From assembly GCA_964580285.1 (NCBI GenBank), contig CAZOKB010000003.1, forward strand, positions 31,403-95,402: DNA of 64,000 bases. The letters run 5' to 3'. This document shows, in pieces, positions 21,213 through 46,453 of this stretch. The notes under the pieces are model-generated. The model saw only the letters and a program-made list of their open reading frames with translations. It was not told the origin of the DNA and did not search any database. The position numbers were made by a program, and so were the translations under genes. Within the stretch, counting starts at the first letter, position 1, and each line of letters starts with the position of its first letter. The DNA is from an uncultured Bdellovibrionales bacterium. Lineage in GTDB: Bacteria; Patescibacteriota; Minisyncoccia; Moranbacterales; UBA1568.

Positions 21213-21283
21213 CGGAGTGTTGTATAGTGGTATTACGCACGCTTCGGGTGCGTGTGACCCGGGTTCGATTCCCGGCACTCCGA
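21213..21283 (+). tRNA. tRNA-Pro (anticodon CGG), no encoded CCA
   Basis: Hand-folded: acceptor cggagtg/cactccg, anticodon stem cacgc/gcgtg with loop TTCGGGT, T-arm ccggg-TTCGATT-cccgg. The D-stem is only 3 bp and the variable loop 4 nt. Confidence 0.55.
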
Positions 21284-21292
21284 CAAAGGATT

Positions 21293-21604: not shown

Positions 21605-21622
21605 AAAAGTCAATCTCAAAAA

Positions 21623-21708
21623 GCCGAGGTGGTGGAATGGTAGACACACTAGCTTTAGGCGCTAGCGGGAGCAATCCCATGGAGGTTCAAGTCCTCTCCT
21701 CGGCACCA
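21623..21708 (+). tRNA. tRNA-Leu (anticodon UAG), CCA encoded
   Basis: Hand-folded: acceptor gccgagg/cctcggc, anticodon stem ctagc/gctag with loop TTTAGGC, long variable arm, T-arm ggagg-TTCAAGT-cctct, 3' ACCA. Confidence 0.75.
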
Positions 21709-21729: not shown

Positions 21730-21841
21730 GAGAGTTCGAGTCCCTGCCTACCGGCAGGCAGGTCTCCTGCAGCACATCATAAGGTTTCCGCCCAAGGCGG
21801 ATCCGCCTTGGGCGGATAAGTCCTCTCTCCTCGGCACACAA
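21730..21841 (+). repeat. degenerate partial duplicates of the tRNA-Leu 3' end (integration-scar-like)
   Basis: aagtcctctctcctcggcac (21820-21841) matches the tRNA 3' end aagtcctctcctcggcac. A more diverged copy gagagttcgagtccctgcctaccggca lies at ~21741. Palindromes lie between them. Confidence 0.5.
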
Positions 21842-21870
21842 AAAAAGACCCTTCTCAGGGGGTCTTTTTA
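21840..21870. terminator. bidirectional terminator between the tRNA region and the convergent surface-protein gene
   Basis: A-tract, hairpin agaccc-ttctcagg-gggtct, then TTTTT. Confidence 0.6.
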
Positions 21871-21881: not shown

Positions 21882-24593
21882 CTAGGTTTCTTTTCGGAAT
21901 GAATGGCTAGGAACCAACGCGCCAATAAAACCGACTGCAAAAAGCAGGAGCGCCCCCGTCAGCAGCATACGGAACGTGAAGAGGACGGTTTCTGGAACAT
22001 AGTTTGAAATGAGGGCGTAGTATTTTTTCAATCCCTTTTCATTCCCCTGAGCCAAAATCGGTTCCTGAATCTCAATTTGTGACTGACCACCAAAACGAAT
22101 CTCGGTCGAATCCAGCGGTGAAATCTGCCAGATATCATACAACGCTCGCCTTACTTGGTCTGATTGCACCAAAAGAGCCCTCAAGGAAACATCGTAGATT
22201 CCCCCGGTGAGTTTTTCCATTGGGAATGAAATCTGACTTGGGGTCGTTTCTGCTACCACTGTTCCATCCACCGTCCATTCTCTAGTGATCCCAGGATACG
22301 ATCCGAGAAAACTCGGAATGTATTCCGCCTTCAGCGCTGCCGTCCCTCCCGAAAAGGCCTGGAGGGCCGTATCAGAATAATCTGGACAGAGACCCGAAGG
22401 ACAGGCCGTGCTAGCAGTACCCAAAACGTCTTTATAGTATCCGAGTAATTTTTTCCATACCGTACTCGTATCAGTCGAAACGATATTGACGAGCGGTTCG
22501 ACAATATGGAACGTGCGCGTGAGCGTTATAGTCTTCCCGGTGGTGATATCATTGGCAGTAAGCGTCACTTGGTACGTATCCCCCACGGCACCTGTAATCG
22601 GGAAGAAGGCTACATGATTTTGCGATCCATCAGTACATTCTGGAGACATTTTATCATTGGTACACACCAACGGATTACCATTCACCGTCCATGCAAAGTC
22701 CTTCAGTCCAGATGGATCAATACGCACGCCAATAATCTCATTCTTAATCACTCGGCAAGCTGTCCGCTCCAATGCTGAAGCATTACAAATAACCTGATCC
22801 AACTTTACTTTCGTCCTGGAGCCCGCCACAACCGGTGTTACTGCATAGGCCGAAATCCTTTTCCCTGTTGAGGTAAACTTCATCACCACATCGCTCTGTC
22901 CGCGCCGCACCCCTCCTCCTTCAAAACTCTCCGTAGCCTTAGCCTTAAAGCGCAGGTACCCAATGCCGCCAGAGATACTTCCCAGCACTGATTTCGGAAT
23001 ATCCATTTTAACAGTAAGCATGTTCAACCCATTGCCTTTGGTATTTTTCACAAGACCATTCGCAAGCAGATCGCTCGTGATGTCGGTCGGGCTGGCGAAG
23101 CGCGGAGTTGAATCTAACTCCACCGTCCAATCATACAGGATGCCTCCCTGCTCCTGAGCGGCATTATCAATCGAAGCCTGGGCAATCACCGTATCTCCAT
23201 TCGCGTCACTCGTTTCATCGTTCACCGGATTCTCTGGTGACGCACTCACCTGTACTGAAAGATTTGTGGCTTGCCCTCCTTCGGTTGGATCCACCAAATT
23301 TTTATCAATACAATCATTCGGATCTAATTTCGTTGTCGGAAAAGTCACACTATATCCCTTCACATTTTGTACATACGATCCCGTAGCAGCACCGACTAAT
23401 CCTGGATAGCACTTATTCTTCGGAAAAGCCCACATTGTCGCGTATGAAGCATCAGCATGCTTGGTGGGAATCATGGATGTTCCTTCTACCGCTACACCCA
23501 CCTGGTCACCAGAAAGGTAATTCCAAGTGAAGAGAGAGAGTCCAAGACCAGCGACATTCGCCTCATCTTTTTTGCTGTTATTTGCCGTACTTGGATCTTT
23601 TGGATCTGTTTTCCAGAATCTCTCTTCGCTCGCTCCAAACGAACCATCTCCCGTTGATCCGGATGATGGCTCTGCAAAAGCGTGTTTGCACAGATTCCTT
23701 ACTGAACTACCCGAGGTAGCTGTTACGGAGCTACACGAAGATAGGGTTGTCGTACAAGTCGTCGCGGATGATGGATCAGACACGCAACATGCCGTACCAC
23801 TCGAGCACGATACCGTCGAGCCACTACATGAAGGAGTCCCTGTTACCGAACACCCTCCCGAAGAACAGCTCGGGGTAGACTCACTAAATGTCGTAAAAGA
23901 ACCGTCTCCGTTTGAAAACGTACTCGATGAAGCACTGATAGTTGTATCTCCCTCCATGCATACTGGAGATGTCCCTGCTGGACAGCCAAACGAGAGAGAA
24001 GAACCGACATCCGCTAGCTCATAGAGCGTCCCAGATGCTGGCTCATACGCATAACAATAATCTGTCTTATCAACCTTATCATCGCCACCGTAGCGTGCTT
24101 GATAGCCATCACCATCGCTATCAGAAGAGTAGCTCGCGGTTGAATTATCGTATCCGTTCTGGACGAGAATCCGAGCCGCCTCGATCTTCCAGTCTTCAGA
24201 GTTGTATCGACCGTCACCATTGTAATCGCACGAACTTGCGCTACAATCCTTACGCTTCAAATACCAACTAAAATACAAAGCCTCTTCAGGATTACTAAAA
24301 TAGATCGGGAAAGCATGCGCCGTAATCTTCTCTCCTTCTTTTGGATCAGAGGGTGAGAAATACAGTGAGACTTCGGGGGTAGTTTTTTTATTGTCGCTTA
24401 CATTGAAACTCTGACCAAAATTTCGAATGCTTCCCAGGTTAAGATTGTATCTCTTCTCAAGCTTACTCGCTACGCTTGAAACTGATGGGATACTTGCTGC
24501 TTGGGCTTGTGGCATATTTGCAAGCAAAAGAGCCATTAAGGACAAACAAGACATGACGCGCATACTTGCCTTCTGACAATATTTTATGTTCAT
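21882..24593 (-). CDS. large secreted surface protein (903 aa) with signal peptide, dockerin/EF-hand-like Ca-binding loop, Ser/Thr/Cys-rich region and C-terminal TM anchor
   Basis: Signal MRVMSCLSLMALLLANMPQAQA. DYNGDGRYNSED fits the D-x-N-x-D-G-x-x-N-x-x-D pattern. S/T/C low-complexity stretch. C-terminal hydrophobic helix. Confidence 0.65.
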   Translation of the reverse strand: MNIKYCQKASMRVMSCLSLMALLLANMPQAQAASIPSVSSVASKLEKRYNLNLGSIRNFGQSFNVSDNKKTTPEVSLYFSPSDPKEGEKITAHAFPIYFSNPEEALYFSWYLKRKDCSASSCDYNGDGRYNSEDWKIEAARILVQNGYDNSTASYSSDSDGDGYQARYGGDDKVDKTDYCYAYEPASGTLYELADVGSSLSFGCPAGTSPVCMEGDTTISASSSTFSNGDGSFTTFSESTPSCSSGGCSVTGTPSCSGSTVSCSSGTACCVSDPSSATTCTTTLSSCSSVTATSGSSVRNLCKHAFAEPSSGSTGDGSFGASEERFWKTDPKDPSTANNSKKDEANVAGLGLSLFTWNYLSGDQVGVAVEGTSMIPTKHADASYATMWAFPKNKCYPGLVGAATGSYVQNVKGYSVTFPTTKLDPNDCIDKNLVDPTEGGQATNLSVQVSASPENPVNDETSDANGDTVIAQASIDNAAQEQGGILYDWTVELDSTPRFASPTDITSDLLANGLVKNTKGNGLNMLTVKMDIPKSVLGSISGGIGYLRFKAKATESFEGGGVRRGQSDVVMKFTSTGKRISAYAVTPVVAGSRTKVKLDQVICNASALERTACRVIKNEIIGVRIDPSGLKDFAWTVNGNPLVCTNDKMSPECTDGSQNHVAFFPITGAVGDTYQVTLTANDITTGKTITLTRTFHIVEPLVNIVSTDTSTVWKKLLGYYKDVLGTASTACPSGLCPDYSDTALQAFSGGTAALKAEYIPSFLGSYPGITREWTVDGTVVAETTPSQISFPMEKLTGGIYDVSLRALLVQSDQVRRALYDIWQISPLDSTEIRFGGQSQIEIQEPILAQGNEKGLKKYYALISNYVPETVLFTFRMLLTGALLLFAVGFIGALVPSHSFRKET

Positions 24594-24604
24594 AATACAA
24601 CTCT

Positions 24605-25264
24605 TTAGCGAAGCACAAGAAACACAATATCAATCAACAAAAAGGTCGCCCAGGTCACTACCCATGAGGCATACACCGATCCAGAAAAATACGCCACCGC
24701 CCCCGAAAAAAGACTCGCGTAGAGAAAAACAGCATACTGCCAAGAAATACCACTTGAAAGAGCCACAAACCCAGAAAAAAGAAGTGCTTGAGCGATGATA
24801 GACCACGCTCCGATCGGCGCGAGCCACAGCCGCATCACGAGACCTCGGAAAAAAACTTCATAGAGGAGAGCAAGCCCACCCACTACCAGGATTTCGTATC
24901 CGATAAACCACATGAAGCTGCGCTCTGCAAAAGCAGGTAAACGGTATGCTTCCCTGAAGCCCGGATCAGAAGCGATAAATATCATGAAGACGCCTTCGAG
25001 ACCGAGAGCGAGCAATCCCCAAAAGAACGCTGGGAACCATTTCGCTCCGTGAAGACCGAGAGCAGTGAGAGGTTCCTTGAGTATTATTTTACAATACATT
25101 ATCGGGAGTACCAAGAAAAAGACGATACCAGTGATCACTCCCTTGAAACTAAAATCAGATGAGGCGTCTTCGGATATATTTCCAAAGAGAACCAGTACGA
25201 CGACAATCAATGTCGCTGTCATAACATTCCGCCTTCCTTGAAATATCGACAAGATACCACGCAT
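24605..25264 (-). CDS. CPBP-family (CAAX-protease-like) membrane protein
   Basis: Polytopic. YEVFFRGL resembles CPBP motif 1 (EExxxR). The second motif is not clearly intact. Confidence 0.5.
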   Translation of the reverse strand: MRGILSIFQGRRNVMTATLIVVVLVLFGNISEDASSDFSFKGVITGIVFFLVLPIMYCKIILKEPLTALGLHGAKWFPAFFWGLLALGLEGVFMIFIASDPGFREAYRLPAFAERSFMWFIGYEILVVGGLALLYEVFFRGLVMRLWLAPIGAWSIIAQALLFSGFVALSSGISWQYAVFLYASLFSGAVAYFSGSVYASWVVTWATFLLIDIVFLVLR

Positions 25265-25278
25265 ATCTTAAATACAAT

Positions 25279-25983
25279 TTATACAATTTTTCTGAAAGCC
25301 CTACCCATGTGATCATCTTCCAAATCATGTACCATTTTTGAAACGGTCATATTTTTATTTTCATGCTCTCGTAACAGCCGCAATCGCGCTTGCCGACGGT
25401 TCTCCTCGTTCCGTAAATGCTGGCCTTCTCCCCGCTCCTCCATTATCCGAATGTGCGCCTCTCGCTCTATCTCCTTCTCTTCTTCAGTTTGTCTCCTCAT
25501 AAACATGGCGGACATCGGACCAAAATCTTTCAGCTCTTTCATTTTGCTCTGTATCATTTGTTCTTTTTTCTGAGCTTTTTTCCATGCGCTATAAGCAAGT
25601 TTGTACAAAATGAATATTGTCAGAGTCTCAAGGGGAAGAAAGTTCAGCCCAAAGGCTATCCCCTCAAGCAATGAAACAAAAAGCAAAATGCCGTAAACTT
25701 GAGTCCTGTGCTGTTTAGCATCTTGATTCAGAAACAAGAGAATAGCTATAATGGTTGAGCACATGAAGGTAATAATGAAACTTATCCCTGGCAGTGCTCC
25801 TCCAACAAAATCAAATATGTCTTTAAAAAGAGCAGTACATCCCATTCCAATGTACGATAATTTGGAAGGCTTTTCTCCGGAAAAACCCTTTCTGGCCTTT
25901 GTCAGCCGACGCATAGCATCTTTATCCCTGCGAAGCGCATTTAGGACTGCGTTCACATTTCCCGTTGGACTCACTGATGGCAT
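25279..25983 (-). CDS. membrane protein with charged C-terminal tail, hypothetical
   Basis: Three predicted TM segments, then a Glu/Arg-rich helical tail. Directly downstream of the VirB4-like gene. Confidence 0.45.
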   Translation of the reverse strand: MPSVSPTGNVNAVLNALRRDKDAMRRLTKARKGFSGEKPSKLSYIGMGCTALFKDIFDFVGGALPGISFIITFMCSTIIAILLFLNQDAKQHRTQVYGILLFVSLLEGIAFGLNFLPLETLTIFILYKLAYSAWKKAQKKEQMIQSKMKELKDFGPMSAMFMRRQTEEEKEIEREAHIRIMEERGEGQHLRNEENRRQARLRLLREHENKNMTVSKMVHDLEDDHMGRAFRKIV

Positions 25984-26037
25984 AAATCTTGGTCTTTAGG
26001 TTCCTCTATTTCATCCTTCTCGCTTAGCTAGAATCTC

Positions 26038-27897
26038 TTACATCCCCGCATCGAAATCCTTCTTCGCCTGTTCGATCTCCAGTAATTGCCGCGGATCCGA
26101 CGTGATAATCTGATCTTCACTGTACGAAGCAATCACTTTGATCGCTGCGTGCTTCGTCCCCGCAAAGAAAATACCTTCTCCCACATTCGATTCCAAGAGC
26201 AGAAACTTCTCATGATCGGTCAGGTAAAATGTCTCAGCTACCGTCTCGATCGATGCTGGCGACTGACGGAGCAAAAGCTGGAGCGACGAGTTCGTCACGA
26301 TCGGCTTGCCATAGCGCGACGCCATGAAGTCACTAATATCCTGCGTGATCGTGGTGAGACCGGTATAGTATTTGCGGCAGCGCTTCGCCACGCCAAAGAG
26401 GAAGGCAGCGGCATCTTCGTGCTGCATCATCACCCACGCTTCATCCACCACAATCACCCGCTTCTTGAGCTCGGTGCGGATCTCATTCCACATGAACTGG
26501 AGAATGATATACATGGCAATCGGCCGGAGTTCTTCTTCCAGATCGCGAATATTGAACACTACCAACTGATTGTTCAGAGAAACATTGGATTGCTTATTCA
26601 GGAACCCGCCGAAAATACCCTCGGTGTAGCGTTCCAACCGAGTCGCGAGCGATTCGGCACCATCCATATTCTGCAGTACGGCATAGAGATCCGACATAGT
26701 CGGGTAGGACTGAGCGGTGAGCTGAGAAAAATCAGATTTCTCCGTAATATCCCGAATGGCGTAGGTTTCACGAATAGCACGATCAAGCACAGCGTCTTCT
26801 TCCGGCGTGACCGCCCCGAGCATAAGGTGAAGCAAACCAATGAGGCTGGCGATATTGCTCCGCAACACACCTTCCGGATCATCCTCATCGTTCTTACGCG
26901 GCAAATCAAACGGGTTGAGGTGTACGGGCGAATTGAGAGCAATCTTCATAAAGCTCCCGCCCACAGTTTCACAGAGGTGCTTGTATTCATTTTCCGGATC
27001 AAGAATAATCACGCTCGCGCCGAACATCATCGAACGCAGCACTTCAAGCTTCACGGTGTAGCTTTTACCAGCACCCGACTTGGCGAAAACGACCATGTTC
27101 GCGTTTTCCAATTTGAAGCGATCAAAAAGAATGAGGGAATTATTATGCCGGTTAATACCATAGAGAATGCCATCCCCAGAAGACAAGTCTGAGGAAACGA
27201 ACGGGAAGGTTGTTGAAAGCGGCTCGGTATTCAAGTTATTAGCCACATCCAGCGTATCGGTCCCAATCGGCCGCGTGGATGCAAAGCCTTGGTCCATACG
27301 GAGTACGGCTGGTTTCACATACACCAGCTGCGCCTCGAGTAGCGATTCAATCGCACTCGACTTCTCCGAAAGATCTTTTTCATCTTTGCCATAGACGGTG
27401 ATATAGAGACCAAAACGGAAAAACTTTTCTGTCCCCTGTTGGAGCTTGTCACGGAGCGCCTCAATATCTTGATAGGCAGTTTCGAGAATCGGGTCACGCA
27501 CCTTACCGCCCTCCGCTTCGATCGACAACTGCGACTGCACCTGCGTAGAAGATTTCCGGAGTTGTTTCAAAATATCCACGGTGTCGATAGGGTGCACGAA
27601 TAAGGAAATGTCCATCGAAAAGTCGATGTTGATAATCGGTGAGAACCAATTCGTGGAGAGGTAGCGCGGGTACGCGATAACAAAATACGTACGCGCAAAA
27701 ATATCTCCTACCTGCATCATCGTCGGGGTAAGCTTCACTGCTGGCGGCGAAATAAGATCACGCACGGTGGCAATGCCTTTCTGGTAGAGCGCCTCCGTGT
27801 CTTGAGCCGTCATTGACCCCAGCGAGAAAGCGTCTTTTGTAACGCTCGTGAGTGCGATCGGTACCGCTTCTTCTTTTTTCTTTCCAAAAAATCCCAT
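26038..27897 (-). CDS. VirB4/TrbE/CagE-family type IV secretion ATPase (ATPase part)
   Basis: Walker A AKSGAGKS, Walker B VIVVDEAW. Typical VirB4 C-terminal region. 619 aa. Confidence 0.85.
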   Translation of the reverse strand: MGFFGKKKEEAVPIALTSVTKDAFSLGSMTAQDTEALYQKGIATVRDLISPPAVKLTPTMMQVGDIFARTYFVIAYPRYLSTNWFSPIINIDFSMDISLFVHPIDTVDILKQLRKSSTQVQSQLSIEAEGGKVRDPILETAYQDIEALRDKLQQGTEKFFRFGLYITVYGKDEKDLSEKSSAIESLLEAQLVYVKPAVLRMDQGFASTRPIGTDTLDVANNLNTEPLSTTFPFVSSDLSSGDGILYGINRHNNSLILFDRFKLENANMVVFAKSGAGKSYTVKLEVLRSMMFGASVIILDPENEYKHLCETVGGSFMKIALNSPVHLNPFDLPRKNDEDDPEGVLRSNIASLIGLLHLMLGAVTPEEDAVLDRAIRETYAIRDITEKSDFSQLTAQSYPTMSDLYAVLQNMDGAESLATRLERYTEGIFGGFLNKQSNVSLNNQLVVFNIRDLEEELRPIAMYIILQFMWNEIRTELKKRVIVVDEAWVMMQHEDAAAFLFGVAKRCRKYYTGLTTITQDISDFMASRYGKPIVTNSSLQLLLRQSPASIETVAETFYLTDHEKFLLLESNVGEGIFFAGTKHAAIKVIASYSEDQIITSDPRQLLEIEQAKKDFDAGM

Positions 27898-27924
27898 GAT
27901 ATTTATCTTATAAAGGCTTTATTT

Positions 27925-28006
27925 CTGTCATTGCGAGGAGTCTTCGACGAAGCAATCTAGAAAAATACTCGGGTACCGGATTGCTTCGCAGAGCCTCGCA
28001 ATGACA
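27925..28006. repeat. long hairpin (MITE/REP-like) repeat, copy B
   Basis: Left arm ctgtcattgcgaggagtcttcgacgaagcaatc is the exact inverse of the copy A right arm. Right arm ggattgcttcgcagagcctcgcaatgaca. Lies between the two VirB4-related ORFs. Confidence 0.6.
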
Positions 28007-28026
28007 AAACTGGAACTAACAGCCCA

Positions 28027-28716
28027 CTATTTCAGCTCTACCTGATCGATATTCTTGAGAATGGAGGAGGTAAAGACCGATGGATTATAGCTATTATAGA
28101 GCAATTCGATAATCTCTTCGGTCTCGAGAGCTGTCACATGCACCCCTGTTGAGGACAGGGCCGCTGTAACATGATCCACCCGCTGCAACAGTTGACTCCG
28201 GTAGGTCTCGAAAAGCTCTGGATGAGAATTGACCGCTTGTTTCGATTTGAAAATCCCGAACATTTTGTCCCCGAAACCGCTCTTTTGATCCTCCACCGAT
28301 GAGAACGGTATGACGACATAGAAAAACTTAGACATGATATTCGAGACCTCGGTCAGATTCTTCACGAACTCTTTGTATTCCGTAATCTGAAACCGTAAGA
28401 GATCATTCTCCTGCTGTTTTTCCCGTTCTGAAAGCAGCTCCAGATACGGCTCAATATTAAAACGGCGCGAACTCACCACAATCTGCACCGGAAAATCGAG
28501 CGAGTTCAAAAAATTCTGATACTGGAGAATAATACCCTCCTGTTCATCCGATGACTTGAGGTCGAAGTTAAGTGACGAAACCAAAAGGACCGCGCGCAGC
28601 GCTCCGGTTTTGAGCACAATCACTCCCTCACGGATTTCATCCACATCCACATACTGTTGGGTGCTGCTTTTCGAAGTCGTTCCGGGATTCGTATTTTTCG
28701 GATTCAAAAATTCCAT
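28027..28716 (-). CDS. VirB4 N-terminal-domain-like protein encoded as a separate ORF
   Basis: EIREGVIVLKTGALRAVLLVSSLNFDLKSSDEQEGIILQYQNFLNSLDFPVQIVV resembles the N-terminal CagE/TrbE/VirB region of VirB4/TcpF-type ATPases. No Walker motifs. Confidence 0.5.
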   Translation of the reverse strand: MEFLNPKNTNPGTTSKSSTQQYVDVDEIREGVIVLKTGALRAVLLVSSLNFDLKSSDEQEGIILQYQNFLNSLDFPVQIVVSSRRFNIEPYLELLSEREKQQENDLLRFQITEYKEFVKNLTEVSNIMSKFFYVVIPFSSVEDQKSGFGDKMFGIFKSKQAVNSHPELFETYRSQLLQRVDHVTAALSSTGVHVTALETEEIIELLYNSYNPSVFTSSILKNIDQVELK

Positions 28717-28733
28717 GCTGGTGGTATTTGTGT

Positions 28734-29141
28734 TTATCGTCGTCGATCCAAAAGGGCCGCGAGCGCTTTGAGCTTTTCTTCGTTGATTTCTTTCTTGTCA
28801 TTCACCGACTGTACCGCGGCACTCGTCCGCTGAGTCACTACTTTCGGCGGCCCCGTGACGTGTACCGGTCGCTCCCACACCGATATTTTCGGTCGAAACA
28901 GAAAAAAAAGACCATGGAACACGAAACTCGTCATAGGCATGCCATTGGGCTTGTAAAAAGCGAACGCTAAAAAGGCCAGTGCGGTCGGTATCCCTATGAG
29001 CAAAAACAACTGAAAATCGAACATTGAGTAGAACAGGAGGAGCGTCGTGCTCATGGCAAACAACCAGCCCAGATGCTTCCAGGTGAAAGGTCCGACGATC
29101 TTGTCTTCTATATCAATGTATTGTGGGACAGCGCTCTGCAT
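28734..29141 (-). CDS. PrgI/VirB3-like small membrane protein
   Basis: Start MQSAVPQYIDIEDKIVGPFTWKHLGWL followed by two hydrophobic helices. Position immediately before VirB4 as in Gram-positive T4SS. Confidence 0.5.
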   Translation of the reverse strand: MQSAVPQYIDIEDKIVGPFTWKHLGWLFAMSTTLLLFYSMFDFQLFLLIGIPTALAFLAFAFYKPNGMPMTSFVFHGLFFLFRPKISVWERPVHVTGPPKVVTQRTSAAVQSVNDKKEINEEKLKALAALLDRRR

Positions 29142-29301
29142 ACAATTCCTCTCAAAGTATATCATGATTCTTCCGGGGACAGCCACACTCCCTATCACGA
29201 TAAGTATCATCTTCACACAGCCAAGGATCCAGTCTTTACCTTTTGAAAATCTAGATCCCGCCTGCGCGGGAAGAACCACCACTCTTCGATCTCAAAAAAT
29301 C

Positions 29302-30606
29302 TTACTCCTCCTCAAGACGGTCATTGCTCACTGGATCAATACGAAAGGGGTTGGGAATGTAGCTTGGGTTACGCTTCGGGGCCTGTGGCGGTTGGAGCGG
29401 AGCCTGCATAGCACTTGGTTTCGGAGTAGTTGGAACTGGAGCAGCAAGCTGTTCTGCCTCGTTCTGTACCAACAAATCCTTTTCCGCTGGCAACACATGT
29501 TTGGAAGAAAAATGCAGTGTTCCATTGGAAGGTGATACCGGCGCTGCTACTGGCTTGGTCGCTACATGCATTGATCCGGTCAACCCTAAGGATGCAAATT
29601 CTTCTGGGTTCACCTGGCGCACTACATTATGATCATTCAAAGCACGCGCATGCGGAGCAATCACAAAGTTATCCCGCTCGAAAGGTACTTCTTTTTGAGG
29701 TACTGGTGCTGCTGGAGCAGCCGCTGTTATATTGGCTGGTAGAGGCTGCGGAGCCGACATCACTGCTTCGCGAGTATCAAACTGGGGCATACGTTCTGGA
29801 GCACCCACCAAACCATGCTGCGGCCGAGGAGCGGCCACTGGAAACAGGATTTCCTGACGATCAGCGTCTACCACAAGCAACTCACTGTCTTCAATGGATC
29901 GGAGAATAAGCGCAATGCGCTCACGCTCTTCATCTGAGAGCTTCGCACCGTTCTGCGAGCGGAAGAGGAATTGCCCTCGAGTCACCGAGTCGTGATACCC
30001 CACCCCGAGTTCTTCGCGGTAGCATTTGATCCAATTCAAGAGCGATCCGCGCATTGGTTCAGCACTCGTCTTCAGTTTCACACGGGACTCCGTAATCGTC
30101 TGCTGCCCCAGTTGCGGAAAACGCGAAAGGGCTTCGAGGAGCGCAACGCGGACAGACGCATCGACTTTAATAGCACTCTTTTTCTCGTCATCAACTTCCT
30201 CTTTAGGCACAATAGTAAGAATATCACTCTTGATATACTCAACTATTGCTGTCAATTTCTGATTATCAGTTTTTCCGAAATGAACAAGGAGTGAAGCTAT
30301 TTTTTCTCTGCAAGTATCAATCGTCCATTCTTCAAAAAAAATCTTTCTCACAGCAAGACTTGCCACACCAACTTCTTCATTAGAGAGACTTAAAATGTCC
30401 TCCATGCTTTTGATTGCAATTGGCACCTCAAACGAGGTGAGTACTTTCTTTTTATTTAAGTCAAGACGATCGTATGCTTCCCATATTTTTTGGTCCTCTT
30501 GGTCCGAAACTTGGTTTTCTAAACCAGATTCATCAACAAGGAGTGGGTAATATCGTCTCGATTGAATTTTTTTTTCCATAACACTACACATGATCAGTCC
30601 ACTCAA
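29302..30606 (-). CDS. hypothetical protein with Pro-rich C-terminal half (434 aa)
   Basis: No TM helix. The C-terminal 150 aa are Pro/Ala/Gln-rich. Embedded in the T4SS-like operon. Confidence 0.45.
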   Translation of the reverse strand: MSGLIMCSVMEKKIQSRRYYPLLVDESGLENQVSDQEDQKIWEAYDRLDLNKKKVLTSFEVPIAIKSMEDILSLSNEEVGVASLAVRKIFFEEWTIDTCREKIASLLVHFGKTDNQKLTAIVEYIKSDILTIVPKEEVDDEKKSAIKVDASVRVALLEALSRFPQLGQQTITESRVKLKTSAEPMRGSLLNWIKCYREELGVGYHDSVTRGQFLFRSQNGAKLSDEERERIALILRSIEDSELLVVDADRQEILFPVAAPRPQHGLVGAPERMPQFDTREAVMSAPQPLPANITAAAPAAPVPQKEVPFERDNFVIAPHARALNDHNVVRQVNPEEFASLGLTGSMHVATKPVAAPVSPSNGTLHFSSKHVLPAEKDLLVQNEAEQLAAPVPTTPKPSAMQAPLQPPQAPKRNPSYIPNPFRIDPVSNDRLEEE

Positions 30607-30608
30607 GA

Positions 30609-32687
30609 CTATGGTTTAAGACCAGCGCCTCTCCAAGCCACTTTCTGTTGACTATTCAAGTTTTTGTATGCATCTATATGTTCCTGTGGCGTCCAATTAC
30701 CACTTGTAACCTGATCTTGGACGAAACTACGCAACTCTGCGTCTACCGGTGTGGCTGCATCTCCATGTATACCCTTTACTTTTCCAACTTCTGCTGCAGT
30801 CAGACCAGACAAATGTTTATCGTAGGCTGCCTGGCGACCCATACCGAGACCAATATCATAGTCAATCAGTGTCTTGAGATGACCTTCTTTCTTGATACGA
30901 CCATTCAATTTAGCCTGCAGCTCTGCATTTCCGCTAAGTGCACCAGAACTAATAAGGCTGGTATATTGAGCCCCACTACCCTTTAATGCACCAGCGTCTA
31001 CTTTTTCAATCAACTGAGCGGCCGACTTAGCATCATTACCCAAATGACCGAGGGCTGAAGTCAAATCATTCATGTCTTTAAACAGTGACTTATCAGCTTT
31101 TCTAATAAGCTCTGCTCGTTTTTCTGCTGACTGCGCCGTTGCCGCTCCACCATTCGCTCGATCAAGCGCTGTAATAGCAGAGTTTAATTCAGCGACATCA
31201 CGGAAACCATCACGCTTAGAGAGCATTCTGACTGCCGCCTCAACATCCTCAGCGCTCTGTGACTTTGGATTTACATTGTAATCATCAATTACTTTACGCA
31301 AGTCGTTATCACTCTTCCGTGCATCATCGAATTTCTTCTCGCTTTCTGATACCGCCTTGGTGTGCTTGTCGCGCACATAAGAGTCAGAGCGTCCAGCAAA
31401 CTTTGCCTTGTATTCTTCTTCTTTTTCCTTCGTTCTATCGCTCCAATATTTTGGAGTAAACAATTTAACACCCTTTGTCTTTTCAGCACGCTCCTTAAGA
31501 CCAGAACCCAGTCCTTTAGCACGTGTAGTGACCGGAGAAGCCATACCACGGCCCACGCCCAGCGCCAAGCCCTTACCCCAACCTCGAGCCTTCAATCCCC
31601 AGCCCTCAACCGTCTTAGCGCCAGCAATACCCATTTTGCTTGAGATACTAATCGTCATCCAGATCATGATCATCGGAATAGAGAAGAGAATCATCTGCTT
31701 AGCAAGCGCATCAGCCCCCGATCCTTGAGCTATACTCTCTGCTTGTTTATAAAAAGCATCTTCCGAAATCACACTCATAAAACGGACAGTCACCAAGAGC
31801 ATCAGCATTGCAACTGGTCCGAAAATAAGGTACTGATTAAATTTATCCCACCACTCTTTGGAATATTTACTAATCGCATCAAGCGGAACCGCTGCCCCCA
31901 CAAACCCGATCGGCGAAAAAATCACCAATACAATCAGTGCCGTGAGCCGAATAACAAACATAACCGCCAAGACTGCCAGCGAAATCGAGAATAAAAACAT
32001 AAAGACGATAGCAAGAAACAGTTGTGATATATTTGTATCTCCATAATTCACGCTATCATCAGCGTTGCGTATCGGCAACAATATCTTTTCCATTCTTGTT
32101 GACGAAAGTGCCCCTTTTTCAAGCGCACCACTCGCTGATGTTGCCCCACTACTTGCATTCATCATCTGCTTGGCAAAGAAGTACATGGGCACATTGGAAA
32201 CATCGATCAAGAAGCGTGCAATCGGAAAGCTGAAATTTACAAAGAGCGCCGCCAACACCACTGAGAGCAGCATTTTTTTGATACTGTACTTCTCGATCTG
32301 AAAGACGGTCGAGAAAGCGACGAGGAGGAGGGAAAAGATGAAGAACAGATTGAAGAAATCACGAATAAACTTCCAAAGCTCGTAAACAACTGATCGATTG
32401 AGAAGTCCGCTTGGTCCAGAAAGGTAATCCGGATTCACTGCAAATTCAAAAAGCGCAATCGCTCCGGAAGCCAACCAGGTAATGGGCGTAAAAATTACTT
32501 TATATAAAACCCAGTTAATGAAAGTCTTCAATCCAGCAATAAAATCTCCAAACAACCCTCCGCTTCCCGTTTCTACTGCCACTGTTTTTGATTGAGCAAA
32601 ACTAATATCCGGCACAAAAAATAAACAGAGTCCGATACATAAAAACAGTACCGAGAGCGCTATGACTTTCTTTTTGTTTCTCCTCAT
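30609..32687 (-). CDS. VirB6/TrbL-like polytopic membrane protein with long hydrophilic C-terminal domain
   Basis: Signal at MRRNKKKVIALSVLFLCIGLCLF. ~7 TM helices in the N-terminal 400 aa, then a ~290-aa Lys/Ala-rich soluble tail. Confidence 0.55.
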   Translation of the reverse strand: MRRNKKKVIALSVLFLCIGLCLFFVPDISFAQSKTVAVETGSGGLFGDFIAGLKTFINWVLYKVIFTPITWLASGAIALFEFAVNPDYLSGPSGLLNRSVVYELWKFIRDFFNLFFIFSLLLVAFSTVFQIEKYSIKKMLLSVVLAALFVNFSFPIARFLIDVSNVPMYFFAKQMMNASSGATSASGALEKGALSSTRMEKILLPIRNADDSVNYGDTNISQLFLAIVFMFLFSISLAVLAVMFVIRLTALIVLVIFSPIGFVGAAVPLDAISKYSKEWWDKFNQYLIFGPVAMLMLLVTVRFMSVISEDAFYKQAESIAQGSGADALAKQMILFSIPMIMIWMTISISSKMGIAGAKTVEGWGLKARGWGKGLALGVGRGMASPVTTRAKGLGSGLKERAEKTKGVKLFTPKYWSDRTKEKEEEYKAKFAGRSDSYVRDKHTKAVSESEKKFDDARKSDNDLRKVIDDYNVNPKSQSAEDVEAAVRMLSKRDGFRDVAELNSAITALDRANGGAATAQSAEKRAELIRKADKSLFKDMNDLTSALGHLGNDAKSAAQLIEKVDAGALKGSGAQYTSLISSGALSGNAELQAKLNGRIKKEGHLKTLIDYDIGLGMGRQAAYDKHLSGLTAAEVGKVKGIHGDAATPVDAELRSFVQDQVTSGNWTPQEHIDAYKNLNSQQKVAWRGAGLKP

Positions 32688-32782
32688 AAGTATATGCCCA
32701 AAGTATACCTCAAAGCCTAAGAAAAAAGAAGGAGGGTTAGCAAACATCGCTAACCCTCTGTTGTGTACAGCCGCCGACATCA

Positions 32783-33052
32783 TCAGCGGAACATCCAGCC
32801 AAGACCAACTCTCTTAGGCTGAGCTGCTGGTTGACTAACTTGTTGCTTCTTCTGGCGGCACTGCTCAAGAAGTACTCGATCACGCTTCGGAAATTGGTCA
32901 ACTCTGTGAGCACCTTGATACATCTCCCACATGTCCTGCAGGTGTTGACAATGTCCAAGCGATGGAGCACTATCCGCCCAAGTCGGAGTAGGGACAGAAG
33001 AAATAGAAACGAGTGCCGCAGCGAGAGCGGCGATAAGAGAAAACTTTTTCAT
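32783..33052 (-). CDS. small secreted protein (89 aa)
   Basis: Signal peptide MKKFSLIAALAAALVSISS, GGAGGG RBS, two Cys. First gene after the hydrolase in the minus-strand operon. Confidence 0.45.
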   Translation of the reverse strand: MKKFSLIAALAAALVSISSVPTPTWADSAPSLGHCQHLQDMWEMYQGAHRVDQFPKRDRVLLEQCRQKKQQVSQPAAQPKRVGLGWMFR

Positions 33053-33276
33053 GATGCCCTCCGTGTGGCGGGAAAAAGAAGAAACGTAAAGCCCTGACGA
33101 GCCAAACGACTGCGCAAGGCAGCTATCAGATGGTCAAGAAAGGCGCCTAAAAAGGAGAAAAGCGCGTTGTATAAAAAAATCATCTGGTAGCTGCCCTGGC
33201 GATTTTCAGTTGTTAACGAGCTCTTTTATAAGGAAAAATTACCAGAAAACCACAGTTTTGTCAAATTCTACAATTC

Positions 33277-34482
33277 CTAGTAAATAAATCCCTTAATAGC
33301 GCGGCTGGAAGCTGAGAGAGTCCGCCGGCTCACCTTACCCCAACCCACGTAGTTCATCTCACTCACCGTAATCGAATCGCCATTTACTCGTTCTACCAAA
33401 GCCACATGGCCATAGTAACGGTTTTCAGTGGTCACCATCATAGCACCCGCCTGTGGACGGCGGCCGGTTTTGTATCCCAGAGATTTCGCTTTATAGAGCC
33501 AGGTCCCCGCATTACCGCTCCACGGCACATAGCGCTTCTGGGCCACATACCATGTGCACCATCCATACGGAAAGCGATGTCCTGACCCTGCTTTGCCATC
33601 CAGTGTACGGAAACCAGAAATATCCGTCGCTGTACCACCACCTGTGGTGGCATACTGCCGGCGGGCCAAGGTATTGGTAGCTGGTGAAGCATTTTGCGAA
33701 GCTTCTTCTTTTTGTCCGTTCGGAATGATGATGGAATCCCCAATCGAAAGCTCTCCATTGGCTGGTAAACTATTGAACGAGATGATCTTTTCTTTTTCGG
33801 CTTTGTATTTAGCCGCAATAGAATCAATCGTATCACCTGATTTCACTACATAGGAGAGTCCCGCCACCGGCAGAATAAATATCTGATCACCTGGTTTGAT
33901 CTCATCTGGATTATCCAAATCATTGGCCCACAGAATGGTATTGACCGTAATCCCATTGCGAGCGGCAATCCCGCTCACTGTGTCCCCATTCACGACAGTA
34001 TAAATCTTTACGCCACCATCTTCTTCCGGGTCTTTGGCCATAGCTAAATGCCCACCCGCCTGAGAAGACAGCACGATTTGATTCTGTTCGGCAATACCAT
34101 TGATATCAAACAAGGTGGTATCATCTTTCTGATCCGGATCAGCATTCAGATTCACAGCCGAAAGCGGTACCAACGAGAGATTCTCTCTTTTACTGGTTTG
34201 CGCTGCAATTTTATGCGTACCAGCAGCTCCGGAAGCCGCCTGGGCTCCATCGGCATACCCAAACAAAAAGGCATTCGTGTCTTTACCGTGAGAAAAATTG
34301 GTGGCCGAAACCAAGAGCGCACTTGAAGCTACTACCGAAAAAGCCGAGTATTCTCGGAACCAATGCACCACCCGGTAGCCAGACGCCTCTTTGAGAGCAA
34401 TCAGGGCCTTGGATTGAAGATGATGAATTTTTGTATGGAGACGAGACAGCAAGTCGCGAAGACTTGCTGGTGTATCATCCAT
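33277..34482 (-). CDS. peptidoglycan hydrolase with 2 LysM domains and C-terminal CHAP domain
   Basis: LysM repeats YTVVNGDTVSGIAARNGITVNTILWAN and YVVKSGDTIDSIAAKYKAEKEKIISFN. CHAP Cys/His region GWCTWYV…YGHVALVE. Confidence 0.8.
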   Translation of the reverse strand: MDDTPASLRDLLSRLHTKIHHLQSKALIALKEASGYRVVHWFREYSAFSVVASSALLVSATNFSHGKDTNAFLFGYADGAQAASGAAGTHKIAAQTSKRENLSLVPLSAVNLNADPDQKDDTTLFDINGIAEQNQIVLSSQAGGHLAMAKDPEEDGGVKIYTVVNGDTVSGIAARNGITVNTILWANDLDNPDEIKPGDQIFILPVAGLSYVVKSGDTIDSIAAKYKAEKEKIISFNSLPANGELSIGDSIIIPNGQKEEASQNASPATNTLARRQYATTGGGTATDISGFRTLDGKAGSGHRFPYGWCTWYVAQKRYVPWSGNAGTWLYKAKSLGYKTGRRPQAGAMMVTTENRYYGHVALVERVNGDSITVSEMNYVGWGKVSRRTLSASSRAIKGFIY

Positions 34483-34695
34483 AGCGTCACGTCCATAAGC
34501 TGCCCGGAGCTTCTCGACGCCCTTCGTAAGGAATGTTGGGAAACGAATACTCGTTTTCCTTTCTCTGAAAAGAGCCTTGGTTTACCCGGCGAAACCCTTT
34601 CGCTCAACGGTAAACATAGGGCTTTTTTCCTAAGAGTTACAGACTCGATTCTAGCGTATGGTGTCATTCCAGTCAATCCAAAATACCTCGATTTT

Positions 34696-37693: not shown

Positions 37694-37745
37694 CCTCTAC
37701 GAGATCATTCTGGTTTCTGTCCGAAACCTCTGAGACTCATCCGCT

Positions 37746-44122: not shown

Positions 44123-44142
44123 AGCACTTATCTCGGCTAGAC

Positions 44143-46239: not shown

Positions 46240-46241
46240 AA

Positions 46242-46448: not shown

Positions 46449-46453
46449 AGGAA

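Follow-up and report, generated by a model that had tools for sequence, protein, structure and literature searches.

The minus strand of the 64-kb window (the whole stretch of DNA analysed, 64,000 nucleotides) carries, between positions 21882 and 34482, a group of genes that resembles a type IV secretion system (T4SS). Which machine do these genes encode, and what would it be used for? The sequence-only reading had listed ten minus-strand ORFs and proposed a minimal VirB3/VirB4/VirB6 plus hydrolase system of the CPR/Gram-positive type. All ten ORFs are present, coordinate for coordinate, and profile searches, orthologues, the taxon and the literature supported the proposal. The source organism is a Moranbacterium (Paceibacteria), and the nearest VirB4 proteins all belonged to Patescibacteria or Moranbacteria. 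The cluster is chromosomal and matches the Patescibacteria T4SS of Quiñonero-Coronel et al. 2025 (PMC12102498), a system present in most of these ultra-small bacteria. Our overall reading, with a probability of about 0.82, is a Patescibacteria T4SS in the Moranbacteria-type arrangement, with kinship to MPF-FATA, acting as a host-interaction device without conjugation.

The core genes encode a T4SS with a two-part VirB4

The 619-aa ATPase (26038..27897, minus strand) matched NCBIfam conju_CD1110 with 357.5 bits against a cutoff of 325, over profile positions 163-730 of 752. Pfam identified P-loop_TraG (2.7e-30) and AAA_10, and the best PDB match was 4AG5, annotated as a VirB4-components-like protein (1.9e-58), followed by TrwK. 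Its Walker A (GAGKS) and Walker B (VVDE) motifs are invariant, and the median identity to 80 species was 75%. The neighbouring 229-aa protein (28027..28716, minus strand) covered conju_CD1110 positions 2-120 (9e-6, NCBIfam) and also matched VirB4_plasma positions 91-236 (3e-10) and TrsD (5e-6); TrsD was found in 56 of 56 loci, with a median identity of 63%. We conclude that the ATPase belongs with the CD1110 (MPF-FATA) VirB4 proteins of Gram-positive type, and that its N-terminal domain is encoded separately and supplied by the TrsD-like protein. Both the VirB4 ATPase and the VirB4 N-domain ORF had been proposed earlier. The ATPase was also examined as a possible member of the FtsK or TraG/VirD4 families; it came out as VirB4, with the expected partners as neighbours, and the secretion-system reading therefore stands. 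A VirD4-type identity was rejected, the VirD4-type models reaching only E 0.03.

The product of 28734..29282 (minus strand) is a small membrane protein that passed Pfam PrgI (1.1e-7, 32.7 bits, cutoff 27), with a weaker match to TcpE, as expected from its first description as PrgI/VirB3-like. It was present in 56/56 loci. Its orthologues are mostly 130-150 aa long, and the true start is probably M48 (about 29141), which would leave about 135 aa.

The 724-aa polytopic membrane protein (30609..32783, minus strand) had no Pfam match itself. An orthologue, from locus L060, aligned with it over its full length (BLASTP, 5e-75) and passed Pfam TrbL (32.0 bits, cutoff 25.9), and 47 of the 56 loci have a gene of this type upstream of virB4. 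Hydropathy predicted about seven TM segments, all between residues 40 and 378, followed by about 345 aa of hydrophilic tail. Assigned transitively via orthologues, the protein appears to be VirB6/TrbL-like. The earlier VirB6/TrbL identity thus held via L060, but the soluble tail is longer than the 290 aa given to it. Alignment with locus L001 suggests that the true start is probably M33, at about 32687.

The 401-aa cell-wall hydrolase (33277..34482, minus strand) contains two LysM domains (Pfam, 1.2e-24) and a C-terminal CHAP amidase/peptidase domain (2.4e-18), as had been claimed. Its N-terminal segment is weakly hydrophobic, and its sole Cys sits in a GWCTWY motif. The hydrolase heads the cluster in 31/56 related loci (those with enough upstream sequence), and we assign it the VirB1-type wall-opening function. 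JGI names this protein 'surface antigen'.

Genes for a relaxase, a coupling protein, VirB11 and a VirB2 pilin were not found in the 64-kb window, nor was a VirB8-like protein. The first three had been reported absent, and none appeared among the other ORFs of the window.

Companion genes

Four genes of the cluster had been put forward as candidate novel components. Three of them (the Pro-rich, 234-aa and 903-aa proteins) are syntenically conserved; the 89-aa ORF is not, and the novelty was overrated.

P434 (29302..30606, minus strand) is a predicted cytoplasmic protein with no TM segments. Its N-domain (residues ~12-135) is helical, an alpha/beta domain follows (~150-256), and the remainder (257-434) is a disordered tail rich in Pro; AF2 pLDDT was above 90 in both domains and below 50 in most of the tail. 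The last third contains 15.9% Pro; the ORF described as Pro-rich is thus present, but only its C-terminal 180 aa, which are disordered, are rich in proline. Two motifs in this tail are conserved, FSSxHxLPxEK and NPFxIxP. P434 matched no Pfam or NCBIfam family, and Foldseek against the PDB returned nothing better than E 0.4; a profile search gave a family of 828 representatives at 50% identity. The called starts differ, with 429 aa in Logan and ENA versus 425 aa in NCBI and JGI; the start is possibly 30591.

M234 (25279..25983, minus strand) is a membrane protein with 2-3 TM segments, conserved motifs (LKDLLD..GSLPGIGT, FGLNFLPIET) and a variable, charged C-terminal tail, and no relative was found in Pfam, NCBIfam or the PDB. 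Its gene lies directly downstream of virB4 in 34/59 loci at E 1e-5, and L026 and L060 have paralogues between the hydrolase and VirB6 genes.

M219 (24605..25264, minus strand; 219 aa, six TM segments) was found in 45/59 loci. The window protein itself did not match Pfam Rce1-like, and NCBIfam ABC_perm_CPBP gave just E 0.09. Thirteen of 20 orthologues matched Rce1-like (best 1.7e-7), suggesting, transitively, that M219 has a CPBP (Rce1-like) fold, in line with the CPBP-like membrane protein noted before. YExxFRG is kept in the alignment, and E124, E136 and R140 are conserved; no His is. M219 is probably no protease, because both catalytic His motifs are missing.

S903 (21882..24593, minus strand; 48/59 loci) has a signal peptide and a C-terminal TM anchor (876-894). 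Its ectodomain of about 830 aa contains about 20 invariant Cys and tandem Ig-like beta-sandwich domains. The AF2 model (mean pLDDT 74.8) is mostly beta strand, and Foldseek against the PDB retrieved Ig-domain arrays (contactin, Dscam, NCAM, phage Hoc) at E ~1e-7. Among the 120 homologues listed, none had a Pfam domain, and the named ones were all 'hypothetical'. The dockerin/EF-hand-like loop CDxNxDGxIxxEDW is conserved, so the surface protein with a Ca loop was correctly recognized. These results indicated that S903 is a membrane-anchored Ig-repeat surface protein.

The 89-aa ORF (32783..33052, minus strand) has a signal-peptide-like N-terminus and no Pfam match. Up to E 10, the 80 related loci yielded no homologue, and DNA homology to L001 ends at the CHAP gene end and restarts at about 32731, which delimits an insertion of about 0.5 kb. 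An identical protein is called on 14 contigs, and the four displayed occurrences come from four samples and have the same neighbour genes. Judged by these comparisons, the ORF is a species-specific insertion and no conserved component, contrary to the role first given to it.

Putative transcription signals

The cluster genes are co-directional, with internal gaps of 224, ~95-160 and 129 nt. Between the divergent hydrolase and xer genes there is a promoter-like site, TTGACT-17-TAGAAT (34648..34676, minus strand; 10/12 consensus matches), about 170 nt before the hydrolase gene. It is a consensus match only, and the region shows no surplus of such sites (11 observed versus 17 expected). A terminator-like hairpin (32732..32758, minus strand) has a stem of 12 bp and a T-run after it; it is located where the 89-aa insertion ends on its 3' side, before the likely start of VirB6. 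It belongs to the 76-nt stretch 32715-32790, which folds into two hairpins at -29.8 kcal/mol (z -4.4), and 0 of 200 shuffles were as stable. A second terminator-like hairpin, GACCC...GGGUC then U7 (21840..21869, minus strand), is located 13 nt past the S903 stop and is likely the 3' end of the cluster. On sequence evidence the single operon proposed earlier is putative, and internal gaps and hairpins are present.

The TrsD-VirB4 gap is 129 nt here versus <40 nt in most relatives. A palindromic element of about 85 nt (27923..28009, unstranded; inverted repeat I7) has been inserted there, and it was absent from 84 related loci. The 133-nt gap RNA, mainly the palindrome hairpin, gave -47.8 kcal/mol (z -6.0). 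A second copy of one palindrome arm is located at 8520-8565.

Proposed mechanism and direction of transport

In the mechanism we propose from what is established for T4SSs, the hydrolase would open the wall locally, and VirB6, VirB3, TrsD and a VirB4 hexamer would form the membrane translocon, with the ATPase tethered to the membrane by TrsD and VirB3. S903, passing through the wall, may be the host-facing element in place of a pilus or adhesin; M219, M234 and P434 may be lineage-specific accessory subunits. Judging from studies of other Patescibacteria, the machine would be non-conjugative, a host-interaction device without a coupling protein, needed for an epibiotic, host-dependent lifestyle. 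In Southlakia epibionticum, epibiotic growth requires the T4SS genes but not ComEC. A 2026 preprint on a cultivated relative describes host-RNA feeding and tubular structures, maybe T4SS pili.

As to the cargo, we tentatively favour import of host macromolecules, e.g. nucleic acids, over effector export. The same machine might instead export proteins, effectors or toxins that are delivered into the host cell or onto its surface, like interbacterial-killing or effector-translocating T4SSs, with P434 as a substrate or chaperone-adaptor. Effector delivery by the Saccharibacteria T4SS has been speculated on by researchers, a FEMS review notes the first Gram-positive effector-translocating T4SS, and the features of P434 (no TM segment, a long disordered tail and conserved short C-terminal motifs) are compatible with a secretion signal. 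However, a coupling protein, usually needed to recruit cytoplasmic substrates, is not encoded nearby, and the coupling-protein homologue of S. epibionticum is dispensable. Pfam and NCBIfam detected neither toxin nor immunity domains in the cluster, and P434 keeps its position as faithfully as the structural genes do, an unusual trait for an effector. We therefore regard export as the somewhat unlikely direction.

Cohesion of the cluster

A narrower view takes PrgI-TrsD-VirB4, perhaps with VirB6, as the whole machine, and the hydrolase, the CPBP-like protein, M234, P434 and S903 as mere envelope or division neighbours. None of the accessory proteins matched a T4SS profile (Pfam, NCBIfam), and the best NCBIfam matches of the hydrolase were the division hydrolases PcsB and DipM, all well below cutoffs. 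In L041-L052 the Xer-hydrolase pair is kept together with the VirB4 core elsewhere, and in tiny genomes gene order may persist without a functional link. Against this, the order is kept down to ~68-70% VirB4 identity, at which the accessory proteins have diverged to 27-40%; P434 is placed between VirB6 and PrgI/VirB3 in 46/56 loci; the gaps between VirB4, M234, M219 and S903 are just 54, 14 and 11 nt; in L052 the hydrolase still adjoins VirB6; and in Paceibacteria specifically, VirB1-type hydrolases accompany virB4 (PMC12102498). The narrower view is thus improbable, and the companion genes, tied to the T4SS by conserved position alone, may be regarded as a putative accessory set. In one subclade the hydrolase-VirB6 part lies ~8 kb from PrgI-TrsD-VirB4; therefore, the cluster is no indivisible unit.

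Inheritance of the cluster

The T4SS cluster could also be an integrative conjugative element, remnant or active, inserted beside the tRNA genes by the adjacent recombinase, with the relaxase and coupling protein lost or elsewhere. The setting invites this idea. Genes for tRNA-Pro(CGG) and tRNA-Leu(TAG) (21213..21708, plus strand) lie on one side, followed by those for the CCA-adding enzyme and IF-2, and a Phage_integrase-family gene (34842..35795, plus strand), divergent from the hydrolase gene and outside the machine, lies on the other. The VirB4 family is typical of Firmicutes conjugative elements, and coupling-protein homologues are encoded elsewhere in other Moranbacteria genomes (PMC12102498). 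However, the recombinase is of the XerC/XerD type (NCBIfam XerD and XerC ~234 bits; XerA_Arch 229.9 bits, cutoff 220) and its synteny with the hydrolase is kept in 31/56 loci, with a median identity of 66%. Housekeeping genes make up the flanks (IF-2, CCA enzyme, Xer, BipA); the CCA and IF-2 genes lie on the same side of the cluster in 20-22 related loci, and the same housekeeping flanks recur in >20 species. The order hydrolase–VirB6–P434–PrgI–TrsD–VirB4–(M234)–CPBP–S903 is colinear in 23/48 related species loci with both flanks present, and VirB4 is as conserved as IF-2 (median identity 75% versus 71%). Neither att-like direct repeats flanking the cluster nor a G+C anomaly was found, and relaxases, lacking in the 64 kb, are rare across the phylum (109 in 3,035 genomes; PMC12102498). 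The integrative element is thus largely refuted and very unlikely. Because of the colinear order, the housekeeping neighbours and the IF-2-level conservation of VirB4, we conclude that the cluster is a vertically inherited core system and no integrated conjugative element.

A VirB4 broken by a nonsense mutation or the palindrome insertion, leaving a pseudogene or one rescued by read-through, might explain why the TrsD and VirB4 ORFs share a frame 129 nt apart around an inserted element, but comparative data refuted it: the in-frame gap holds further stop codons, the split occurs in 75/75 related loci with the same frame in just 16/75, TrsD ends in all three types of stop codon with gaps typically of 4-30 nt, both halves are strongly conserved, and TrsD, with 2,272 occurrences in Patescibacteria, is recognized as a protein in its own right (PMC12102498).

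Comparison with known systems

VirB4 is present in 2,417 of 3,035 Patescibacteria genomes, and most of these proteins form a monophyletic clade inside MPF-FATA (PMC12102498). Since the T4SS was already described in 2025, only the four unnamed companion genes, P434, S903, M234 and the degenerate CPBP gene (M219), are fresh leads. The Patescibacteria T4SS is a relative of the MPF-FATA machinery by which Gram-positive bacteria conjugate, and TrsD, VirB3 and VirB6 are encoded near virB4 (PMC12102498). For a Moranbacterium, Table S3 of that study lists genes 293 (VirB6), 294 (unassigned), 295 (VirB3), 296 (TrsD) and 297 (VirB4), and this order, VirB6–(unassigned)–VirB3–TrsD–VirB4, matches the cluster in the window.

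Organization and transcription of the cluster

All ten minus-strand ORFs that the sequence-only reading had grouped into a single operon were found exactly where it had placed them. In transcription order, the cluster (21882–34482) encodes a LysM-CHAP hydrolase (401 aa; 33277–34482), an 89-aa ORF (32783–33052), a VirB6/TrbL-like protein (724 aa; 30609–32783), an unassigned 434-aa protein designated P434 (29302–30606), a PrgI/VirB3 ORF (182 aa; 28734–29282), a TrsD-like ORF of 229 aa designated N229 (28027–28716), a VirB4 ATPase (619 aa; 26038–27897), the 234-aa membrane protein M234 (25279–25983), the 219-aa CPBP-like membrane protein M219 (24605–25264) and, last, the 903-aa surface protein S903 (21882–24593). 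The G+C content of the cluster (0.44–0.50) was the same as that of the remainder of the window. An Rfam scan of the cluster detected two tRNAs and nothing else.

The operon claim stood only in part. All genes run in the same direction, with a promoter-like site (34648–34676, minus strand) at the upstream end and a terminator-like hairpin (21840–21869, minus strand) at the downstream end, and several gene junctions are tight (2–54 nt). Against a single transcript stand the internal gaps, which measured 224 nt from the hydrolase to the 89-aa ORF, 129 nt from TrsD to VirB4 and probably ~160 nt from P434 to the likely PrgI start, and a hairpin-T-run (32732–32758) before the likely VirB6 start, where the surrounding 76 nt folds at −29.8 kcal/mol. 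One 12.6-kb transcript for the whole cluster is plausible from these signals. Alignment with a related locus (L001) placed the likely true start of VirB6 at ~32687, and orthologue lengths placed that of PrgI at ~29141. P434 possibly starts at 30591; its called lengths disagreed between Logan and ENA (429 aa) and NCBI and JGI (425 aa).

The ATPase is VirB4 and is encoded by two genes

The 619-aa protein matched the Pfam families P-loop_TraG, AAA_10 and TraC_F_IV. Against NCBIfam, it scored 357.5 bits with the VirB4-like model conju_CD1110 (cutoff 325) and also matched the TraC (1e-57) and VirB4_CagE (2e-39) models, whereas VirD4-type models reached an E value of ~0.03 at best (CD1115, E 0.029). 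The match to the CedB model was weak (E 9.6e-14, far under the cutoff). The Walker A (GAGKS) and Walker B (VVDE) motifs were invariant in 10 relatives, and the best solved relative was 4AG5, annotated as a VirB4-components-like protein (1.9e-58), followed by TrwK of R388. The NCBIfam, Walker motif and 4AG5 results therefore identified the ATPase as VirB4, as had been proposed from the sequence, and not as a member of the FtsK or TraG families.

The 619-aa protein covered positions 163–730 of the 752-position CD1110 model, and N229 covered positions 2–120 of the same model. N229 also matched positions 91–236 of the mycoplasma ICE model VirB4_plasma (3e-10) and, under the curated cutoff, the TrsD model (5e-6). 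As judged from this profile coverage, the two proteins together are one VirB4. The two ORFs are in frame in the window, so that a pseudogene or a read-through pair was considered; the comparison of 75 related loci ruled this out. The TrsD-like ORF was adjacent to virB4 and separate from it in 75/75 loci, the two shared a frame in only 16 of them, and the TrsD stop codons varied (TAA 47, TAG 14, TGA 14). Because the ORFs were always separate, with varied frames and stops, the gene comparison indicates that TrsD and VirB4 are a long-established two-gene arrangement. The gap between them was usually 4–30 nt in the related loci; it is longer in the window (129 nt) because a palindromic REP/MITE-like element of ~85 nt (27923–28009) is inserted there. 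The RNA of this gap folds at −47.8 kcal/mol (z −6). The element was absent from 84 related loci, and one of its arms (GATTGCTTCGTCGAAGACTCCTCGCAATGACAGAAA) occurs again in the window at 8520–8565, upstream of a cysteine desulfurase gene.

Other T4SS components of the cluster

Pfam assigned two LysM domains and a CHAP domain to the 401-aa protein, and the 182-aa ORF matched Pfam PrgI (32.7 bits; cutoff 27). About seven hydrophobic segments lie within residues 40–378 of the 724-aa protein, which continues as a hydrophilic tail of ~345 aa and gave no direct Pfam match. It aligned over its full length with the orthologue from a related locus, L060 (BLASTP, 5e-75), and that orthologue passed the Pfam TrbL/VirB6 threshold (32.0 vs 25.9 bits; profile positions 26–198 of 215). 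The 724-aa protein is thus assigned, transitively by way of this orthologue, as a predicted VirB6/TrbL polytopic protein.

No relaxase, coupling protein, VirB11 or VirB2/T4SS_pilin was matched among the scanned window ORFs, which outside the cluster include every ORF longer than ~280 aa; the claim that relaxase, VirD4 and VirB11 are missing from the window held for this set. The other scanned ORFs encode housekeeping, copper-resistance, serine recombinase and unrelated small proteins. TrbC/VirB2 and T4SS_pilin profiles also found no match in the M234 family, the 89-aa ORF or the other small membrane ORFs of the window. None of the cluster proteins showed the VirB8 architecture of an N-terminal TM segment plus an NTF2-like domain. 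VirB8 is seldom detectable across the phylum (PMC12102498).

The cluster is conserved and chromosomal

We examined related loci, one genome per species, found by VirB4 search. By tblastn, the gene order in relatives was Xer (minus strand); hydrolase, VirB6, P434, PrgI, TrsD, VirB4, M234, M219, S903; CCA enzyme (minus strand) and IF-2 (minus strand). Among the loci with enough flank (56 on the upstream side, 59 on the downstream side), PrgI and TrsD were each present in 56/56, VirB6 in 47/56, P434 in 46/56, and the LysM-CHAP hydrolase, which heads the cluster where present, in 31/56; downstream, S903 was present in 48/59, M219 in 45/59 and M234 in 34/59. The complete colinear set was found in 23 of the 48 loci having both flanks. 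The reading of the cluster as a minimal, relaxase-less T4SS was supported.

Median identity was 75% for VirB4, 71% for IF-2, 66% for Xer, 63% for TrsD, 59% for the hydrolase, 41% for PrgI, 40% for S903 and 33–38% for the remaining cluster proteins; VirB4 is therefore constrained like a translation factor. The best 120 VirB4 matches were 77–100% identical, and the VirB4 proteins of the 80 loci scanned, one genome per species, were 68–90% identical; in both sets, the informative names were those of Moranbacteria, Parcubacteria or Patescibacteria MAGs. Many related MAGs carry the title 'uncultured Bdellovibrionales bacterium' despite a clearly Moranbacteria-like VirB4 and synteny; this looks like a labelling error made systematically within a single series of submissions.

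An ICE or other integrated element was rejected. The picture of a tRNA plus an integrase is misleading because the adjoining recombinase is XerC/D-like and syntenic across species, and no flanking att-like direct repeats were found around the cluster; in addition, the housekeeping flanks are conserved in >20 species, there is no G+C anomaly, and no relaxase was found among the scanned window ORFs. These genomic comparisons point to a chromosomal cluster inherited vertically. In one subclade (L041, L042, L045, L047, L049 and L052), a distance of ~8 kb separates the PrgI-TrsD-VirB4-M234 block from the Xer/hydrolase pair, and VirB6 comes after this pair in L052. The divergent Xer-hydrolase pair is therefore a stabler unit than the whole cluster.

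Proteins without an assigned role

The sequence-only reading had listed the 89-aa protein, P434, M234 and S903 as candidate novel components. This survived for the last three, whose positions are preserved across dozens of species, and failed for the 89-aa protein, which had no homologue in 80 related loci and is borne on an insertion. Its ORF begins with a signal-peptide-like stretch, contains no hydrophobic helices after it, gave no Pfam match and sits in a lineage-specific insertion of ~0.5 kb in which a strong terminator-like hairpin is also present; it was accordingly rejected both as a conserved component and as a VirB2 pilin. The identical protein was found on 14 contigs, and the four places shown were from four samples, with the same neighbours. 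In L008, L014, L024 and L027, the variable slot between hydrolase and VirB6 is occupied by ORFs that are either toxin-antitoxin-like or small, secreted and Cys-containing.

P434 has no TM segment, and its proline is concentrated in the last third (15.9%). Alignments for structure prediction were built from database matches. AlphaFold2, with a 40-sequence alignment, predicted a helical domain (~12–135) and an alpha/beta domain (~150–256), both with pLDDT >90, followed by a disordered tail (residues 257–434) that bears the conserved motifs FSSxHxLPxEK and NPFxIxP. A Foldseek search of the model against PDB gave nothing better than E 0.4. P434 was thus rejected as a VirB8 or as a known fold, having neither a TM segment nor a match to VirB8-type structures. 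An exhaustive profile search collected 828 cluster representatives of the family, and the sole look-up that gave an organism gave Moraniibacteriota.

S903 begins with a signal peptide and is anchored by a C-terminal TM segment (876–894); of its 24 Cys residues, ~20 are invariant. Its dockerin/EF-hand-like loop, CDYNGDGRYNSEDW, follows the pattern CDxNxDGxIxxEDW, and most orthologues keep its C, D, G and ED(W/Y) positions; S903 matched neither Pfam Dockerin nor EF-hand, and no precomputed Pfam domain was present among the 120 homologues listed. The structural model (mean pLDDT 74.8) was mostly beta strand and resembled Ig-like domain arrays (contactin, Dscam, NCAM and phage Hoc; E ~1e-7). The orthologues contain large lineage-specific inserts between conserved blocks at two fixed positions (alignment A4 of the S903 orthologues, columns ~300–500 and ~660–900), one rich in Cys, Ser and Thr and the other in Thr. 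Such inserts fit a host-facing surface protein, and their pattern suggests that they are diversifying, host-facing modules.

M234 contains 2–3 TM segments and two conserved motifs but no folded ectodomain, and had no relative in Pfam or PDB. Profiles for VirB2/T4SS_pilin matched none of 26 family members, and M234 was rejected as a pilin. M234-like paralogues that share its LKDxxD and LPLETL-type motifs lie between hydrolase and VirB6 in two related loci (L026:4189-4617 and L060:4877-5308).

M219 contains six TM segments. Among its orthologues, 13/20 matched the Rce1-like/CPBP family (PF02517; best E 1.7e-7), whereas M219 itself did not match PF02517 at E up to 1 and reached E 0.09 with NCBIfam ABC_perm_CPBP. 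It had no PDB sequence match, and direct PDB sequence searches with TrsD, VirB6 and M234 likewise returned nothing useful. CPBP/Rce1-like proteases use the catalytic motifs EExxxR, FxxxH and HxxxB. In alignment A3 of the M219 orthologues, YE(v)FFRG (E136, R140) and E124 were conserved, and no conserved His was found anywhere; the single His of the window protein is non-conserved. Because the orthologues match Rce1-like proteins, YE(v)FFRG is kept and the His is missing, M219 probably has a CPBP fold without protease activity.

Other features of the window

About 10 kb from the T4SS cluster, two adjacent plus-strand genes (11418–12008 and 12026–12340) encode proteins of 196 and 104 aa whose C-termini matched the end of Pfam Shufflon_N. 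This model is built on PilV-type pilus adhesins, and the two may be type IV pilus-related tip/adhesin proteins. A copper-handling island (~43500–60100) contains HMA P-type ATPases (44143–46239 and 51308–54916), a multicopper oxidase (49089–50726), a DsbD_2-HMA-cupredoxin fusion (55202–56695), and cupredoxin, DUF2933, SHOCT, DUF411 and DsbA-like genes. The copper genes are followed by a large serine recombinase (57183–58634) and tRNA-Ser (59973–60060), and the G+C content, which falls to 0.43–0.44 at 56–60 kb, suggests that this is an integrated mobile island. The exonuclease VII large subunit (15488–17029, minus strand) carries an N-terminal HRDC domain (residues 3–67) before the OB fold, an unusual fusion. 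Two tandem PMT_2-family glycosyltransferase-like membrane proteins of 620 and 605 aa (35831–39563, plus strand) are encoded where the strand skews are extreme (GC skew −0.36, AT skew −0.30).

Possible mechanism and function

From the roles of their homologues, the LysM-CHAP hydrolase would open the wall, and VirB6, VirB3, TrsD and a VirB4 hexamer would form the membrane translocon; S903 might reach the host through the wall, with M219, M234 and P434 as putative accessory proteins. For Patescibacteria T4SSs, export of effectors and import of nucleic acids have each been put forward, import by analogy with ComB. A 2026 preprint describes host-RNA feeding by a cultivated relative, with tubular structures that are maybe T4SS pili. 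We lean towards import (~40%) over effector export (~30%), because no coupling protein was found in the window, the comparable ComB and Ced systems are importers, and nucleotide synthesis is beyond the ability of these organisms.

A further-reaching reading makes P434, M234, M219 and S903 of Moranbacteria true subunits of the essential Patescibacteria T4SS. The Moranbacteria locus is apparently without VirB2 pilin and VirB8; S903 would be a disulfide-rich, membrane-anchored Ig-repeat stalk bearing hypervariable inserts, a host-contacting conduit or adhesin replacing the pilus, M234 and the His-less CPBP-fold protein would add new subunits in the membrane, and P434 would be a cytoplasmic adaptor in place of the missing coupling protein. 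Taken jointly, these roles are unlikely. The minimal relaxase-less T4SS described here adds no new kind of system. What it shows is that, within one large uncultured lineage, the conserved core is accompanied by four uncharacterised proteins that keep their positions across dozens of species; they are candidates for parts still missing from the machine, those that span the wall, contact the host and recruit substrate. Their value is limited because no Moranbacterium is yet manipulable.

Comparison with known systems

Staphylococcus aureus SpdC/LyrA is a catalytically inactive CPBP/Abi-fold membrane protein that partners the wall hydrolase SagB. M219, a small and probably CPBP-fold membrane protein, is alike in lacking the catalytic His and in being clustered with a peptidoglycan hydrolase, a likeness that offers a lead; an interaction of M219 with the LysM-CHAP protein is purely hypothetical. 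The Helicobacter pylori ComB and archaeal Ced importers share with the cluster a chromosomal VirB4-family ATPase without coupling protein or relaxase. The likeness is a functional analogy only. ComB is a diderm VirB2-B10 set, and Ced uses CedA and CedA1/2 membrane proteins and archaeal pili; their other components have no detectable homology to the window cluster.

Conjugative T4SSs of the MPF-FATA type in Gram-positive bacteria (pCF10 prgH-prgI-prgJ-prgK, pGO1 trsC-trsD-trsE-trsG and CTn2 CD1110) were also compared. Like them, the cluster combines a CD1110-family VirB4 (best solved relative, 4AG5) with a PrgI-family VirB3 and a TrsD-type protein, its VirB6 gene precedes VirB3-VirB4, and its wall hydrolase contains a CHAP domain. 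Unlike them, it showed no relaxase, coupling protein, VirB8-like protein or LPXTG adhesin, it is vertically inherited rather than carried by a mobile element, and its hydrolase joins LysM and CHAP without a lytic transglycosylase domain.

Functional data on this system come only from Southlakia epibionticum ML1 (Saccharimonadia; Wang et al. 2023 Cell, as summarized in PMC12102498, PMC11665869 and PMC12857230), whose T4SS genes were reported as essential for epibiotic growth by Tn-seq, with a coupling-protein homologue and ComEC dispensable. The Patescibacteria T4SS is the first for which an essential role in its own carrier organism was shown. Both loci are chromosomal, and both combine TrsD with VirB3, VirB4, VirB6 and a VirB1-type protein, putative in the window, as a monoderm set. 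Southlakia, a member of another class, has six VirB2-like pilins in an array, with peptidase and lysozyme genes downstream of virB4; VirB8- and VirD4-like components are listed for it in a FEMS review, whereas no structural VirB8 homologue was detected according to PMC12102498. In the window cluster, by contrast, no pilin or VirB8 was found, LysM-CHAP is at the head, and P434, M234, M219 and S903 are Moranbacteria-specific.

The closest match is the Patescibacteria-clade T4SS surveyed in 3,035 genomes (Quiñonero-Coronel et al. 2025, Microb Genom; PMC12102498), a dataset with many Moranbacteria. In that survey, 2,417 genomes encoded VirB4, and almost all of these proteins fell into a single clade within MPF-FATA; TrsD was the commonest companion, VirB3 and VirB6 lay near virB4, VirB1 homologues, often with LysM, were associated with virB4 mainly in Paceibacteria, relaxases were rare and coupling proteins were usually distant. 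VirB2-like pilins near virB4 were common without being universal (1,135 of the 1,948 assemblies that contained pilins). P434, M234, S903 and the CPBP-like protein were left unassigned in the survey, whose main text is silent on CPBP and CAAX and states that adhesins were not detected. Unlike many Patescibacteria, the window has no VirB2-like pilin that we could find near virB4, and unlike in many Paceibacteria, its T4SS is not near dnaA. The cluster shares with this clade its chromosomal location, a VirB4 of predicted MPF-FATA ancestry with an adjacent TrsD-like ORF, a PrgI-type VirB3, VirB6, and, in the scanned window ORFs, the lack of a relaxase and of a nearby coupling protein; its LysM-CHAP hydrolase would be the VirB1-type hydrolase that accompanies virB4 in Paceibacteria. 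In the Moranbacterium GCA_000990175.1 (Table S3 of PMC12102498), genes 293, 295, 296 and 297 are VirB6, VirB3, TrsD and VirB4, and gene 294, exactly at the position of P434, is without assignment; the order VirB6-(unassigned)-VirB3-TrsD-VirB4 is identical in the window. The cluster is therefore a member of the Patescibacteria-clade T4SS with nothing essential different, a real and well-conserved case, low in novelty, of an already described system.
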